Origin: an uncultured Acidimicrobiaceae bacterium
Lineage (GTDB): Bacteria; Actinomycetota; Acidimicrobiia; Spongiisociales; ZC4RG35
Reading direction: 5' to 3'
Length of the DNA stretch: 64,000 nt
Assembly: GCA_964474055.1 (NCBI GenBank)
Contig: CAYYRT010000407.1
Span: 1,110-65,109, forward strand
Part shown: positions 1 through 64,000 of the stretch, piece after piece
How positions within the stretch are numbered: the first letter of the stretch is position 1
Layout: each line of letters starts with the position of its first letter
The notes under the pieces: generated by a model
Database searches by the model: none
Told to the model about the DNA's origin: nothing
What the model saw: the letters and a program-made list of their open reading frames with translations, nothing else
Program-made: the position numbers and the translations under genes

Positions 1-975
1 GAGACCTTCGTCCGCAACGACTCGTCCAGCTCGGTCGACCAGCTCGGTCTTCGTCGGGGTCGGCAAGTTTACAATCAGAACACTCTCGGAGCTACGGTAG
101 ATTGGCTGTTAGACCAGGTCGCCACGCAGGCCTACTACCGCAACGTGCTGTTTCTCAACGAGGGCGGGAGTTCAAACAATACCAACACCACTGCAGGTGC
201 CTCCGCCAACGAAGATGATCAGATGACGCATATTCTCGGAGTGAACGCCGCAACCCGCGTCTTGACCGACTATCTGATCCGGGTGGGATATGAGTTCTCA
301 CGGACCGACGCACTCAACGGCGGGAACAGAGATTCGGCCAACACGAGCAACACCGTCTTTGCGTCCGCCTCTCGGCAGTTTGGCTTGTACGCGACCGGCG
401 GTCTGTCGACCTCCGCTCAGTTCCAGACCGAAGATAGCACCCGTGTCTACAACGTGTCTCTCTTCGGGGCCTACGGCTTGCCCACTGGGCTCTCGCTGTC
501 TGCCGCCGTGGGCTACAGCATTCTACAGAGCGACACGCAGGACAGCGAGGGCATCATCACGGCTAACGTCGCGGCCAGCTACCGCTTCGCGCGGGCTGTC
601 CTTTCTGTGGGCGTGTTTCAGGACTTCCGCCAGACTGCCCAGCAGGGCCAGAACTTTGGGACCGTCCAGACCCGGTCCTACTTCGGGAGCTTCCTTTACC
701 AGTGGACGCCGTTTATCAACACCGTGCTCAATGTGACTTACAGCGAGAACGAACCCACTGGGACCGGCAATCAGCGCGGCGGGGGAAGCCAGAACATGCT
801 CACGTACGGAGCTGGCGTGAACTGGCAGGTGTTGCGCTGGCTGACCGCGAGCTTGCAGTACCAATACAGCAGGCAAACCGGAGGCGATACCTTCAGCAAC
901 AATCAGCCGGGGCAGGCTGGGACCGGCGATTACGCCGAGAATCGCGCGACCCTCAGCCTCTTCGCGACGTTCTAG
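1..975 (+). CDS. 5'-truncated putative outer-membrane beta-barrel protein. The frame is open from base 1. Possibly the PEP-CTERM-locus-associated OMP.
   Basis: Frame 1 is open from position 1 to the stop at 973-975. The protein is Gly/Ser/Thr/Asn/Gln-rich with alternating hydrophobic residues and ends in ...ATLSLFATF (terminal aromatic beta-signal). Confidence 0.5.
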   Translation, partial: ETFVRNDSSSSVDQLGLRRGRQVYNQNTLGATVDWLLDQVATQAYYRNVLFLNEGGSSNNTNTTAGASANEDDQMTHILGVNAATRVLTDYLIRVGYEFSRTDALNGGNRDSANTSNTVFASASRQFGLYATGGLSTSAQFQTEDSTRVYNVSLFGAYGLPTGLSLSAAVGYSILQSDTQDSEGIITANVAASYRFARAVLSVGVFQDFRQTAQQGQNFGTVQTRSYFGSFLYQWTPFINTVLNVTYSENEPTGTGNQRGGGSQNMLTYGAGVNWQVLRWLTASLQYQYSRQTGGDTFSNNQPGQAGTGDYAENRATLSLFATF

Positions 976-1102
976 CGTCGCGGTTGTTACCCGCCGCGCA
1001 AACGTTGCACTGATTCACCAAGCGTTAAGTTTCTACTTTAATTCGCTATTTTATCGCGGTCAACGCTGATGGGAACGCGTCCGCGCAGATTTCCGTAGAA
1101 GA

Positions 1103-1122
1103 TGGAAAGGATTGCCCAATCC
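1103..1122. promoter_or_regulatory. Inverted repeat GGATTG-CC-CAATCC (within TGGAAAGGATTGCCCAATCC) about 88 bp upstream of the sigma-54 -24 element. Candidate enhancer (UAS).
   Basis: Perfect 6-bp arms with a 2-bp spacer, read directly from the sequence. Resembles the repeat at 44281-44298 upstream of the second sigma-54 promoter. Confidence 0.3.
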
Positions 1123-1202
1123 GTGTAGCGAAAGACCCCGAGAAATGATCGCGATTTTGTATTGTATTCAGTGAGTTAACTGCGTCTCGTCTGGTTCCGG
1201 CT

Positions 1203-61401: not shown

Positions 61402-63311
61402 TGTGCGGCATCGCCGGCATCGTGCGCTTCGACCCGCGGGAGACCGTGGACGAGGCCCGTCTCAAGCGGATGCGCGACGTCCTTCGCCATCGCGGGCCGG
61501 ACGGCGAAGGAATCTGGATCGACGGGCCGGTCGGCCTGGCGCACCGCCGCCTCTCCATCGTGGACGTGGCGGGCGGACACCAGCCGATGTCGGGCGAGCA
61601 CGACGCGGTCTGGATCACCTACAACGGCGAGATCTACAATCACGCCGCGCTCCGGCCGGGACTCGAGAGCGCCGGCCACCGCTACCGCACCCGGAGCGAC
61701 ACCGAGACCATCCTGCACCTGTACGAGGAGGAAGGCGAGCGCTGCGTCGAGCGCCTCCAGGGCATGTTCGCGTTCGCCCTGTGGGACCGGACCCGCGAGT
61801 GCCTCCTCCTCGCGCGCGATCGTCTCGGCATCAAGCCGCTCTACTACACGGTGACGGACGAGGAGCTGCTCTTCGGCTCCGAGATCAAGGCCATCCTCGC
61901 CGCGCGGCCGGGCCGGCCGCGGCTGAACGCCGCCGCGCTCCCCGAGTTCCTGGCGACCCGCTTCCTGGCGGGCGAGGAGACGTTCTTCGAGGGCGTCCGG
62001 AAGCTGCCGCCGGGCTACACGCTCGCGTGGTCGCGGGCCGGTGGGCCACGACGCCGGCGCTACTGGCAGCTCCCCGTCGAGACCGACAGCTCCCCGGCGG
62101 GATTCCAGGAGCGGTCCCGGGAGCTGGCCGGACGGCTCGAGTCCGCGGTGCGCAGCCATCTCATGAGCGATGTCCCGCTCGGCCTGTTCCTGTCTGGGGG
62201 TCTCGACTCGACCGGCCTGGCCGCGCTCATGGCGCCGATGGCCGCGGACCGCATTCGCACCTTCGCGGTGGGCTTCGACGACGAGGCGAGCAACGAGCTG
62301 CCCTACGCGCGGCTGGCCGCGCGGGCGGTGGGCGCCCGGCACCACGAGGTGGTGGTCACGCCGGACGACTTCCTGGGCGCCCTCCCGCGGCTGATCTGGC
62401 ACGAGGACGAACCGATCGCGTTCCCGTCCAGCATCGCGCTGCACTTCGTGTCGCGCCTGGCGCGGCCCCACGTCAAGGTGGTCCTGACCGGTGAAGGCTC
62501 CGACGAGCTCTTCATGGGCTACGCGTGGTACCGCCTCACCGCGTGGAACGAGCGCCTCGGACGCCCCTACTGGCGCATGACGCCGCGAGGCCTCCGCCGG
62601 GGCATCCAGCGCGCGATCCCGCGGCTGCCGCAGCGCCTGCGCCGGTATGCCGGGCGGAGCTTCCTGGCCCTCGATCCCGGCGTGCGGGCGGTGTTCTACG
62701 AGAACTTCGCCGTCTTCCCCGCCGCCCTCCGCCGGAGCCTGGTGCTGGACCAGGACCTCGTGGACCGGGTGGATCCCTACCAGGAGCAGATGCGGCTCTT
62801 CGAGGGCACCCCCGGCTCCACCGTGCACCGCATGAGCCACGCGGACCTCCAGACCTACCTGGTCGAGCTCCTGATGAAGCAGGACCAGATGAGCATGGCC
62901 GCGTCCATCGAGAGCCGTGTCCCGTTTCTCGACCACGAGCTGGTCGAGCACGTCGTGCGGACGCCGGATCGCTTCAAGGTGCGCGGCCTCACCACGAAGG
63001 CGGTGCTGCGCGAGGCGCTGCGGGACCGGGTGCCGCGCGAGATCGTGCGCCGCCGCAAGCTGGGCTTCCCGGTGCCGTTCGGCCGCTGGGCGCGGGAGCA
63101 GCTCGCGGCCTCGATCCGGTCCACCGTCGTGGGGCCGCGCGCGCTGGCCCGCGGCCTCTTCGAGCGCTCGGCGCTGGAGCGGCTGGTGGCCGAGCACGAG
63201 AGCGGCGCGGTCAACCACGCCGATCGGCTCTGGCTCCTGCTGAACCTCGAGCTCTGGCAGCGGGTCTACCTGGATGGCGAGGAGCCGGAGGCGCTGCCCG
63301 CCGGTGCCTGA
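61401..63311 (+). CDS. asnB: Asparagine synthetase (glutamine-hydrolysing) family amidotransferase (exosortase-system-associated type).
   Basis: MCGIAGIV, HRGPDGEG, RLSIVDV, YNGEIYNH, PP-loop LFLSGGLDST. Confidence 0.85.
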   Translation: MCGIAGIVRFDPRETVDEARLKRMRDVLRHRGPDGEGIWIDGPVGLAHRRLSIVDVAGGHQPMSGEHDAVWITYNGEIYNHAALRPGLESAGHRYRTRSDTETILHLYEEEGERCVERLQGMFAFALWDRTRECLLLARDRLGIKPLYYTVTDEELLFGSEIKAILAARPGRPRLNAAALPEFLATRFLAGEETFFEGVRKLPPGYTLAWSRAGGPRRRRYWQLPVETDSSPAGFQERSRELAGRLESAVRSHLMSDVPLGLFLSGGLDSTGLAALMAPMAADRIRTFAVGFDDEASNELPYARLAARAVGARHHEVVVTPDDFLGALPRLIWHEDEPIAFPSSIALHFVSRLARPHVKVVLTGEGSDELFMGYAWYRLTAWNERLGRPYWRMTPRGLRRGIQRAIPRLPQRLRRYAGRSFLALDPGVRAVFYENFAVFPAALRRSLVLDQDLVDRVDPYQEQMRLFEGTPGSTVHRMSHADLQTYLVELLMKQDQMSMAASIESRVPFLDHELVEHVVRTPDRFKVRGLTTKAVLREALRDRVPREIVRRRKLGFPVPFGRWAREQLAASIRSTVVGPRALARGLFERSALERLVAEHESGAVNHADRLWLLLNLELWQRVYLDGEEPEALPAGA

Positions 63312-63315
63312 CCCC

Positions 63316-64000
63316 ATGCGGATTCTCTGGGTCAAGGTCGGCGGGCTCTGGCCGCTCGACATGGGCGGGCGCCTGCGGAGCTTCAATACCATCGCCGAGC
63401 TCGCGCGCCGGCACCGCGTGACCGTGCTGACCACGCACGGGCCCGCGGACGACACCGAGGGGCTCGCGGCCCGGCTGACGGCGTGCGAGCGCATCGTCTC
63501 GGTGCCCCACGCGATTCCGAAGGCGGGGACACCCCGCTTCGCGGCGGCCCTGGCCCGGTCCTGGCTCTCGCCCTACCCGGTCGACCTGTGGAAGTGCCGG
63601 GTCCCCGCGCTTCAGGCCCATGTCCGGGAGGCCCTGGCCGCGGGCGTGGACGTGTGCGTGGCCGATTTCCTCGTCGCCATGCCGAACGTGCCGGCCGGTG
63701 GGCGGGCGCCCATCCTCCTCTTCGAGCACAACGTCGAGTATCTGATCTGGAAGCGGCTCCACGACGTCGAGCGCGGCACCCTTCGCCGGGCCCTGCTCGG
63801 CATCGAGTGGCGGAAGATGCGCCGCTACGAAGCGCGGGCCTGCCGGCGCGCGGCGCTCACCGTCGCCGTCTCCGAGGCCGACCGCGCGCTGCTCGGGGCC
63901 GGTGCCCGCGATGCCGACATCCGCGCGATCCCCACCGGGGTGGACACGACCTACTTCCACCCCAACGGGACCGTGGAGAAGCCCGCCACGCTGGTCTTCA
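63316..64000 (+). CDS. 3'-truncated glycosyltransferase family 4 (PEP-CTERM/EpsH1-associated sugar-transferase type). Continues beyond the window.
   Basis: N-terminus MRILWVKVGGLWPLDMGGRLRSF.. is paralogous to 11471-12685. The frame is open to the end of the window. Confidence 0.6.
   Translation, partial: MRILWVKVGGLWPLDMGGRLRSFNTIAELARRHRVTVLTTHGPADDTEGLAARLTACERIVSVPHAIPKAGTPRFAAALARSWLSPYPVDLWKCRVPALQAHVREALAAGVDVCVADFLVAMPNVPAGGRAPILLFEHNVEYLIWKRLHDVERGTLRRALLGIEWRKMRRYEARACRRAALTVAVSEADRALLGAGARDADIRAIPTGVDTTYFHPNGTVEKPATLVF

Follow-up and report, generated by a model that had tools for sequence, protein, structure and literature searches.

What does an exosortase-associated polysaccharide locus amount to when the exosortase itself is missing from it? 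The question is raised by a 64,000-nt stretch of contig CAYYRT010000407.1 (assembly GCA_964474055.1) from an uncultured Acidimicrobiaceae bacterium, hereafter the window, which a preliminary description made from the sequence alone took for a two-operon exosortase/PEP-CTERM-type exopolysaccharide (EPS) locus without its exosortase gene, xrtA. Our analysis indicates that the window probably carries two adjacent, independently promoted operons, each with its own Wzy-type assembly line for a surface polysaccharide or exopolysaccharide. The locus is of a known kind; what distinguishes it is an XrtA-type gene set with an empty xrtA slot, found in an uncultured, non-proteobacterial lineage.

Two probable operons, each with its own assembly line

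Open reading frames (ORFs) were called with a codon-usage gene model (GC content of the window, 60-74%), and starts at 17310, 34162, 36644 and 37009 were corrected with guidance from related loci and signal peptides. The preliminary description had spoken of some 50 same-strand genes; of the 50 resulting ORFs, 48 lie on the plus strand and two (40061-41257 and 41363-42589) on the minus strand. Cluster A spans 1234-39993 (31 genes), and cluster B runs from 44457 past 64000 (at least 16 genes). After the start corrections, 4-nt overlaps occur at 16 of the 45 same-strand junctions (11 ATGA, 5 GTGA), TGATG 1-nt overlaps at four and longer overlaps at another four, so that the earlier count of more than 20 ATGA or TGATG junctions becomes exactly 20 of that type, GTGA included, and 24 overlaps of all kinds. 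The largest intergenic gap is 43 nt within cluster A and 17 nt within cluster B. This tight packing is real, but typical for long operons of high-GC genomes.

Each cluster has its own priming transferase, polysaccharide co-polymerase (PCP) with bacterial tyrosine kinase (BY-kinase), and Wzy_C protein. The window thus holds, as parts of the Wzx/Wzy pathway, two priming transferases, two Wzy-type polymerases (with 10 and 8 transmembrane segments) and two PCP-2a/BY-kinase sets. Each cluster is also preceded by a match to the sigma-54 promoter consensus:

1203-1217, + strand: predicted sigma-54 promoter A, TGGCACCGTGCTTGC, 17 nt ahead of the ATG at 1234
44379-44393, + strand: predicted sigma-54 promoter B, TGGCACCTAATTTGC, 64 nt ahead of the ATG at 44457

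These are the two exact occurrences of TGGCAC-N5-TTGC in the 64 kb (0.03 expected; two or more in 0 of 100 shuffles), both intergenic, on the plus strand and just upstream of clusters A and B. Three related loci allowed their conservation to be followed: L081 (JGI Ga0613200_110819), L082 (ENA/NCBI ERZ25039586 contig_4852) and L163 (Ga0679442_0000239). The site of promoter A is invariant in L081 and L082 inside a variable spacer, and that of promoter B is kept in L163, 78 nt ahead of the orthologous regulator gene. Because the promoter matches are conserved and no internal gap exceeds 43 nt, the data support two putative sigma-54-driven operons of ~39 kb and at least 19.5 kb. The two-operon layout proposed earlier is therefore borne out and sharpened by a perfect match ahead of each operon; the promoter pair is new in this analysis. 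Scans for sigma-70 promoters and terminators in the window stayed at background level. Conserved islands lie farther upstream of promoter A (GCGCAAACGTTGCA, TTGCCCAATCC and ATTCAaTGAGTTA), and a palindrome, AATGGGAttTCCCATT, lies ~95 nt upstream of promoter B; these could be activator or integration host factor (IHF) sites.

The clusters also differ in composition. GC content at third codon positions (GC3) is 0.81 +/- 0.05 in cluster A versus 0.94 +/- 0.02 in cluster B, and overall GC is 65.8% versus 71.4%; such strong differences suggest that the clusters are not of one origin or have not resided equally long in the genome. Scans of the window for Rfam families, tRNAs, tandem repeats and dispersed repeats returned nothing beyond paralog similarity.

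Cluster A carries the XrtA-type gene set

All products were scanned against NCBIfam, including the TIGRFAM exosortase models, and unassigned ones also against Pfam; a pass is a bit score above the curated model cutoff. In cluster A, eight XrtA-system models score above cutoff (TIGR03013, 03006, 03019, 03087, 03088, 04063, 03097 and 03098), and by these family assignments it is an XrtA/PEP-CTERM-type EPS cluster. The preliminary description had staked its reading on such models: for cluster A the expectation held, while for cluster B it largely failed, with TIGR03007 alone passing. Even in cluster A, the fused Wzz/BY-kinase at 2648-4876 falls under the cutoffs of the XrtA-specific ChnLen and TyrKin models, and none of the five AsnB paralogs of the window (starts at 12682, 19149, 22152, 54320 and 61401) reaches the TIGR03108 cutoff of 816.9, at 325, 697, 759, 653 and 544 bits, respectively. 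The genes of cluster A are as follows, with scores in bits against the cutoff:

1234-2604, + strand: priming polyprenyl-phosphate sugar-phosphate transferase (TIGR03013, EpsB_2, 483.5 against 393.35; TIGR03025, 402 against 296)
2648-4876, + strand: fused Wzz-type chain-length determinant/BY-kinase, Wzc-like (TIGR01007, 111 against 108)
4879-6228, + strand: NDP-sugar dehydrogenase, UDP-ManNAc dehydrogenase-like (TIGR03026, 432 bits)
6238-7245, + strand: short-chain dehydrogenase/reductase (SDR) epimerase
7245-8114, + strand: XrtA-system deacetylase, NodB-type (TIGR03006, 371 against 276)
8111-9199, + strand: WecB 2-epimerase (TIGR00236, 329 against 210)
9208-10233, + strand: FemAB-family XrtA/PEP-CTERM-associated protein (TIGR03019, 397.9 against 260.35)
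10230-11471, + strand: first TIGR03087-type (stp1) glycosyltransferase (GT), 199 bits, under the cutoff of 317
11468-12685, + strand: second TIGR03087 (stp1) GT, 416 bits, above the cutoff of 317
12682-14577, + strand: AsnB-like amidotransferase with degenerate glutaminase domain (TIGR03108 match from residue 91)
14574-15581, + strand: second polysaccharide deacetylase (Polysacc_deac_1)
15605-17287, + strand: GlmS-like amidotransferase (glmS profile positions 1-551 of 607)
17310 (likely start) to 17828, + strand: small secreted protein; the extended ORF has a signal peptide
17825-19147, + strand: Wzy/O-antigen-ligase-like polymerase (TIGR03097, 445 against 188; Wzy_C and DUF5935; ten predicted transmembrane segments)
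19149-21020, + strand: AsnB (TIGR03108, 697, under 817)
21023-22150, + strand: TIGR03088 GT (427 against 409)
22152-24074, + strand: AsnB (TIGR03108, 759, under 817)
24071-25261, + strand: TIGR04063 GT (499 against 442)
25268-26503, + strand: generic GT4
26503-34178, + strand: acyl/aminoacyl-carrier cassette of a CapK/PaaK-like adenylase, two GNATs (Pfam Acetyltransf_6 and Acetyltransf_9), an acyl carrier protein (ACP), a GT2, a ligase and a pyridoxal phosphate (PLP)-dependent decarboxylase, including the next three entries
29991-30254, + strand: ACP
31300-32871, + strand: TIGR03098 ligase (634 against 592)
32871-34178, + strand: TIGR03099-like PLP decarboxylase (458, narrowly under 478)
34162 (TTG start, set by comparison with L163), + strand: DegT-family aminotransferase
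35367-36647, + strand: GT4
36644-36994, + strand: 116-aa remnant of a secreted Kelch-repeat gene, with an internal deletion relative to L163
37009-39993, + strand: secreted HzsA-related beta-propeller protein, 994 aa (PF18582), last gene of operon A

What the preliminary description had named is indeed encoded in the window. The four N-termini it quoted all fall at gene starts: MKVLHVLDHSVP at 24071, MRILMLAHRIPYPPHTGDK at 11477 (three codons inside the gene starting at 11468), MGPVVAHVVHSLDVGGLENG at 21023, and MSKFQKALEQA at 48505, on a GTG start. The FemAB-like protein, two NodB-type deacetylases, ExeA-like ATPase, Wzz, BY-kinase and sigma-54 regulator are all present, as are the modification enzymes: five AsnB paralogs plus the GlmS-like amidotransferase at 15605, the two deacetylases, a methyltransferase, the FemAB-like protein and the ACP cassette.

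The GlmS-like protein ends ~50 residues before the C-terminus of full-length GlmS; a frameshifted C-terminus was considered and rejected, as no remnant was seen in any frame. The 116-aa ORF consists of the N-terminal 54 aa and C-terminal ~60 aa of an intact 394-aa gene found at the same position in L163. The HzsA-related family is widespread and its myxobacterial members have MYXO-CTERM tails; no C-terminal sorting signal was found in the 994-aa protein of the window.

The xrtA slot is closed

None of the 50 window products matched the models for the exosortase (TIGR03109/TIGR02602), EpsI, Wza or Wzx, and tblastn with three reference exosortases and one EpsI gave no match at E<=1 in any reading frame of the window. 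The window also offers no exosortase candidate with eight transmembrane segments; its polytopic membrane proteins are, in full, two priming transferases, two Wzy_C proteins, two PCPs and one GT2. There is likewise no polytopic candidate for a Wzx (MOP) flippase in the window and none in the flanks of close relatives. A scan for PEP-CTERM tails, which recovered the three annotated PEP-CTERM proteins of the Desulfovibrio vulgaris plasmid pDV as a positive control, came back empty for the window and for 166 related loci. The absence of exosortase, EpsI, Wza, Wzx and PEP-CTERM cargo from the window, as first described, is thus upheld.

Gene order allows the gap to be placed. Two annotated (PGAP) XrtA loci served as references, on plasmids of Vibrio alfacsensis (NZ_CP140104.1) and Sphingomonas parapaucimobilis (NZ_CP155749.1), where the order is deacetylase, FemAB, TIGR03087 GT, xrtA and XrtA-system amidotransferase; with pDV included, xrtA lies between the TIGR03087 and amidotransferase genes in two of three reference loci. 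Cluster A shows the same order, with an inserted wecB and an extra TIGR03087-like GT and minus xrtA. Its TIGR03087 gene (end 12685) and AsnB gene (start 12682) share a 4-nt ATGA overlap, so there is no room for xrtA at its usual slot. The AsnB at 12682-14577 has neither the Cys2 nucleophile nor the HRGPD motif of the glutaminase domain; it is probably glutaminase-dead, being either ammonia-dependent or non-catalytic. Its N-terminal 90 aa were considered as an xrtA or epsI remnant and rejected: they gave no tblastn match and align to the decayed glutaminase domain.

On pDV, the exosortase and EpsI genes sit ~13 kb downstream of FemAB in the same operon, and a position distant from the core is therefore not unprecedented; absence from a locus this large is nonetheless unusual among the three references. 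A location downstream of the TIGR03087-like GT at the window end was also considered and rejected, relatives having a UDP-sugar dehydrogenase and GTs there. Named homologs of cluster A point to Candidatus Rokuibacteriota, those of cluster B to a metagenome-assembled genome labelled Myxococcaceae; no literature on Rokubacteria with an exosortase was found. Should the organism possess an exosortase and PEP-CTERM substrates for it, their genes lie elsewhere.

Cluster B, probably a generic Wzy-type cluster

The junction from A to B is kept in L163 (85-88% DNA identity). Between the clusters, and through cluster B to the window end, the following features were identified:

40061-41257, - strand: secreted Kelch propeller, in a ~1.4-kb insertion relative to L163
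41363-42589, - strand: secreted beta-helix protein, Pel9A-like in L163
42718-43140, + strand: GGDEF fragment, 140 aa, partial domain only
43223-43861, + strand: SCO4226-like protein
44457-45851, + strand: sigma-54-dependent response regulator, PrsR-like, first gene of operon B (TIGR02915, 349, under 503)
45848-47437, + strand: XrtA-type chain-length determinant, Wzz (TIGR03007, 295 against 279, passes)
47447-48508, + strand: ExeA-like AAA ATPase (TIGR03015, 244, under 324)
48505-49563, + strand: BY-kinase (TIGR03018, 144, under 231)
49560-50918, + strand: second priming transferase (TIGR03013, 373, under 393; TIGR03025, 364 against 296, passes)
50932-52098, + strand: membrane GT2
52106-53041, + strand: Trm112-methyltransferase
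53044-54351, + strand: second Wzy_C polymerase, 8 transmembrane segments
54320-56179, + strand: AsnB
56197-57321, + strand: GT4
57318-58439, + strand: GT4
58436-60556, + strand: cytoplasmic heparinase II/III-like protein, without signal peptide
60553-61401, + strand: 282-aa protein, weak GT-A-like fold, no Pfam or NCBIfam family
61401-63311, + strand: AsnB
63316-64000, + strand: TIGR03087-like GT, cut by the window end

Apart from TIGR03007, models passing in cluster B are generic ones; its products fall under the cutoffs for PEP_resp_reg, pepcterm_ATPase, pepcterm_TyrKin, EpsB_2, PEP_O_lig_1 and TIGR03108. The PrsK/PrsR/PrsT module is not assembled here either: the window encodes no histidine kinase and no TPR lipoprotein, and the regulator stays under the TIGR02915 cutoff.

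Relatives of cluster B were gathered by genome and metagenome scans with the 3' partial GT as query. Its heparinase-fold protein, 282-aa protein, AsnB and TIGR03087-like GT form a 3' block that recurs in ~160 loci at 50-93% protein identity, from Acidobacteriota, Rokuibacteriota, Gemmatimonadota, Gammaproteobacteria and a metagenome-assembled genome labelled Myxococcaceae, and is syntenic in L001 and L083-L101. The flanks of these ~160 loci contain at least 38 Wzx-type flippase genes and an exosortase fragment in one. Because a single XrtA model passes and the relatives carry Wzx but rarely an exosortase, cluster B, judged by its gene families, is better described as a second, generic, self-contained Wzy-type cluster. 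We read it not as the second half of one exosortase locus, but as the neighbour of an XrtA-type cluster of other compositional history. The exosortase fragment just mentioned (L160, 5061-5417, 45% identical to the D. vulgaris Xrt) lies ~2 kb downstream of the TIGR03087-like GT on a distant 5.4-kb contig, whose end cuts it off.

The 282-aa protein belongs to a widespread family. Its AlphaFold2 (AF2) model (pLDDT 94.7) has GT-A enzymes as best matches in the PDB, weakly (E~1e-3, TM 0.3-0.4); searching PDB sequences with a profile of the family yielded only noise. Invariant Cys, His, Asp and Trp residues suggest that it is an enzyme. A Rubrivivax homolog lies in a Wzm/Wzt O-antigen-like cluster without exosortase.

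In the spacer, the ~1.4-kb insertion (39957-41372) carries the minus-strand Kelch paralog, which differs from the 394-aa gene of L163 and is 45% identical to a gene of L164. The GGDEF fragment at 42718-43140 may be a degenerate regulator related to cyclic di-GMP; a short GGDEF gene is also present in L163 (143 aa), and a 180-aa one lies upstream of wza in L082.

The locus beyond the window

The window is 89% DNA-identical to L081 over its first 11 kb, and 82% identical to L082. It opens within a gene that is whole in these relatives:

1-975, + strand: C-terminal 324 aa, ending SLFATF, of an outer-membrane beta-barrel protein (575 aa in L081), its gene cut by the window start

By itself this product matches no Pfam or NCBIfam model; the full-length relative matches TIGR03016 at 39 bits, under the cutoff of 91. 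In the AF2 model, a disordered N-terminus rich in P and Q is followed by ~20 beta strands, and Foldseek retrieves large outer-membrane barrels including AlgE. A 408-aa NCBI protein matches the partial first ORF at 100% identity, and its contig appears to start inside the barrel gene. Absent from the window, Wza, the outer-membrane polysaccharide export (OPX) protein, is encoded directly ahead of the barrel gene in both L081 and L082 as a 276-279-aa protein passing TIGR03027 (191-194 against 180); in front of it lie genes for one or two sigma-54 activators and a GGDEF protein, and before those unrelated genes. The barrel gene is thus a distant TIGR03016-like member of an upstream wza-barrel unit, and the pair would form a third, upstream transcription unit.

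Downstream, the next genes in L084, L088 and L094 (79-81% identity) encode a UDP-glucose-type dehydrogenase and a further two to three GTs, after which unrelated genes follow; these downstream flanks contain no exosortase and no Wzx. A Wzx gene does occur in L164 (70% identity), at the position of the window's CapK-like adenylase and one GNAT. As judged from these relatives, the locus is predicted to exceed the window by ~5 kb on each side. The earlier expectation of a locus larger than 64 kb holds in close relatives, with Wza and sigma-54 activators upstream and the dehydrogenase and GTs downstream. Of the genes expected just outside, wza is there in the relatives' flanks, while xrtA, epsI and wzx are not.

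Proposed route to the polymers

Enzymatic roles are assigned here from family membership and established knowledge of the Wzy pathway. In operon A (about 38.8 kb), the TIGR03013 transferase would prime polyprenyl phosphate; WecB, the UDP-ManNAc-type dehydrogenase, the SDR epimerase and the GlmS-like enzyme may supply amino and uronic sugars, from which ~7-8 GT4 and GT2 enzymes would assemble the repeat unit. The AsnB paralogs probably amidate uronic-acid carboxyls, and the deacetylases, FemAB and GNAT enzymes and ACP-ligase-decarboxylase cassette may re-decorate amino groups. The TIGR03097 Wzy-like protein would then polymerise the repeat unit, with chain length set by the fused Wzz/BY-kinase and export via the short Wza (TIGR03027) and the large beta-barrel encoded immediately upstream. 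Export systems that combine a short OPX protein with a separate barrel are known.

Operon B encodes a regulator, a separate Wzz and kinase, a priming transferase, a Wzy, GTs, two AsnB, a methyltransferase and a cytoplasmic heparinase-fold enzyme of its own, and probably makes a second polymer. Both operons would be transcribed from the sigma-54 promoters, presumably activated by the enhancer-binding proteins whose genes open operon B and lie upstream of wza.

Weighing the alternatives

Several points weigh against this account. Neither the window nor ~10 kb of relatives' flank contains an exosortase, EpsI, a PEP-CTERM protein or Wzx, so that the link to protein sorting rests on family association and the flipping step is without a candidate. 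All AsnB paralogs and most cluster B proteins score under the XrtA-specific cutoffs. The predicted promoters are consensus matches, not mapped transcription starts, and promoter A would leave a leader of just a few nt, the -12 element and the ATG being at most 16 nt apart. The flanks described, moreover, belong to relatives (79-89% identity) and stand in for those of the source genome. The missing genes are what a lineage without any exosortase would show, its XrtA-associated machinery having been uncoupled from PEP-CTERM sorting to run as a plain Wzy-type EPS system. This is a tentative possibility, to which a canonical xrtA slot closed by a 4-nt overlap, the loss of the glutaminase nucleophile from the AsnB beside it, the absence of PrsK and PrsT from the window and the sub-cutoff score of the PrsR-like regulator all lend weight. 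Eight equivalog-level models nevertheless pass cutoffs calibrated on XrtA-containing genomes; the exosortase may also lie off-core, as on pDV, and the view is limited to 64 kb of the genome plus the relatives' flanks. The fuller form of this idea is an XrtA-type machinery that has shed exosortase, EpsI and PEP-CTERM cargo altogether and, driven directly by sigma-54, makes EPS beside a native second EPS line in a soil lineage outside the Proteobacteria; it is held just as tentatively.

The preliminary description had implied that both operons build a single, highly decorated heteropolysaccharide. The clusters are adjacent, an adjacency kept in L163, and share a promoter type; moreover, the one Wza-barrel pair seen lies upstream of A, whereas B itself and the downstream flanks of its relatives showed no Wza. 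Against a single pathway stand the duplication of priming transferase, PCP, BY-kinase and Wzy, the GC3 contrast, and the occurrence of the cluster B 3' block without cluster A in many phyla, and we consider it unlikely; from these same features we infer two polymers. It is more improbable still that the clusters make lipopolysaccharide O-antigen, capsule or protein glycans instead of a secreted matrix EPS, even though TIGR03097 is named a putative O-glycosylation ligase, both Wzy_C proteins fall in the O-antigen ligase/polymerase superfamily, and the Rubrivivax homolog of the 282-aa protein keeps O-antigen-like company. A PCP-2a with BY-kinase and Wza-type OPX is a hallmark of capsule or EPS export, not of O-antigen. 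Furthermore, Zoogloea and Aquincola need XrtA-type clusters to make their floc EPS (PMC9850573). Two independently promoted Wzy-type assembly lines, one of them XrtA-type, thus remain the preferred reading.

Comparison with known systems

Cluster A resembles proteobacterial XrtA loci in its families (TIGR03013, 03006, 03019, 03087, 03088/04063, 03097 and 03098/03099, with 03007 in cluster B and TIGR03027 just upstream), in the core order of deacetylase, FemAB, TIGR03087 GT and amidotransferase, and in a sigma-54-type regulatory link. Their xrtA is fused with EpsI, whereas the slot is empty here and PEP-CTERM proteins, PrsK and PrsT are lacking; the window in turn has the inserted wecB, the second TIGR03087-like GT and, in cluster A, a fused Wzz/kinase. 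Its amidotransferases stay under the TIGR03108 cutoff, and its host, an uncultured high-GC bacterium from soil, falls outside the Proteobacteria.

Like the window, pDV of Nitratidesulfovibrio vulgaris Hildenborough (NC_005863.1; the D. vulgaris reference above) carries a long same-strand operon with TIGR03013, an export protein, ChnLen, TyrKin, ATPase, a TIGR03016 outer-membrane protein, deacetylase, FemAB, DegT, GTs and an O-antigen-ligase-like protein; a sigma-54 regulator is encoded at the cluster as well. Unlike the window, it also has a flippase, exosortase, EpsI and neighbouring PEP-CTERM proteins.

The EpsY-type system of Myxococcus xanthus is a Wzx/Wzy-dependent EPS pathway with a short OPX protein and a separate beta-barrel porin. 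The locus shares with it a short Wza (276-279 aa here) followed by a large outer-membrane barrel gene, along with PCP/BY-kinase, priming transferase and Wzy. It differs in that the barrel has no family membership (no Pfam match, TIGR03016 weak) and that no Wzx was found; NF041843 (EpsY) was matched at 118 bits, under its cutoff.

Experimentally studied XrtA loci are the floc clusters of Zoogloea resiniphila and Aquincola tertiaricarbonis (PMC9850573). In Aquincola, RpoN was shown to drive the gene of a PEP-CTERM protein, and EPS synthesis persisted in the rpoN1 mutant (PMC9850573); in the window, by contrast, it is the EPS operons themselves that have predicted sigma-54 promoters ahead of them.

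Significance

The two predicted sigma-54 promoters provide a clean regulatory hypothesis for the locus. What the locus can say about the role of an exosortase toward the polysaccharide genes that travel with it depends on whether the organism has an exosortase elsewhere. If it does, the window adds one well-annotated EPS locus of a known type, useful mainly for cataloguing. If the genome is truly without one, 'exosortase-associated' glycan genes would function without protein sorting, and the lineage, which keeps a nearly complete XrtA-type gene set, would offer a natural test of the mutual dependence of glycan and sorting enzyme.

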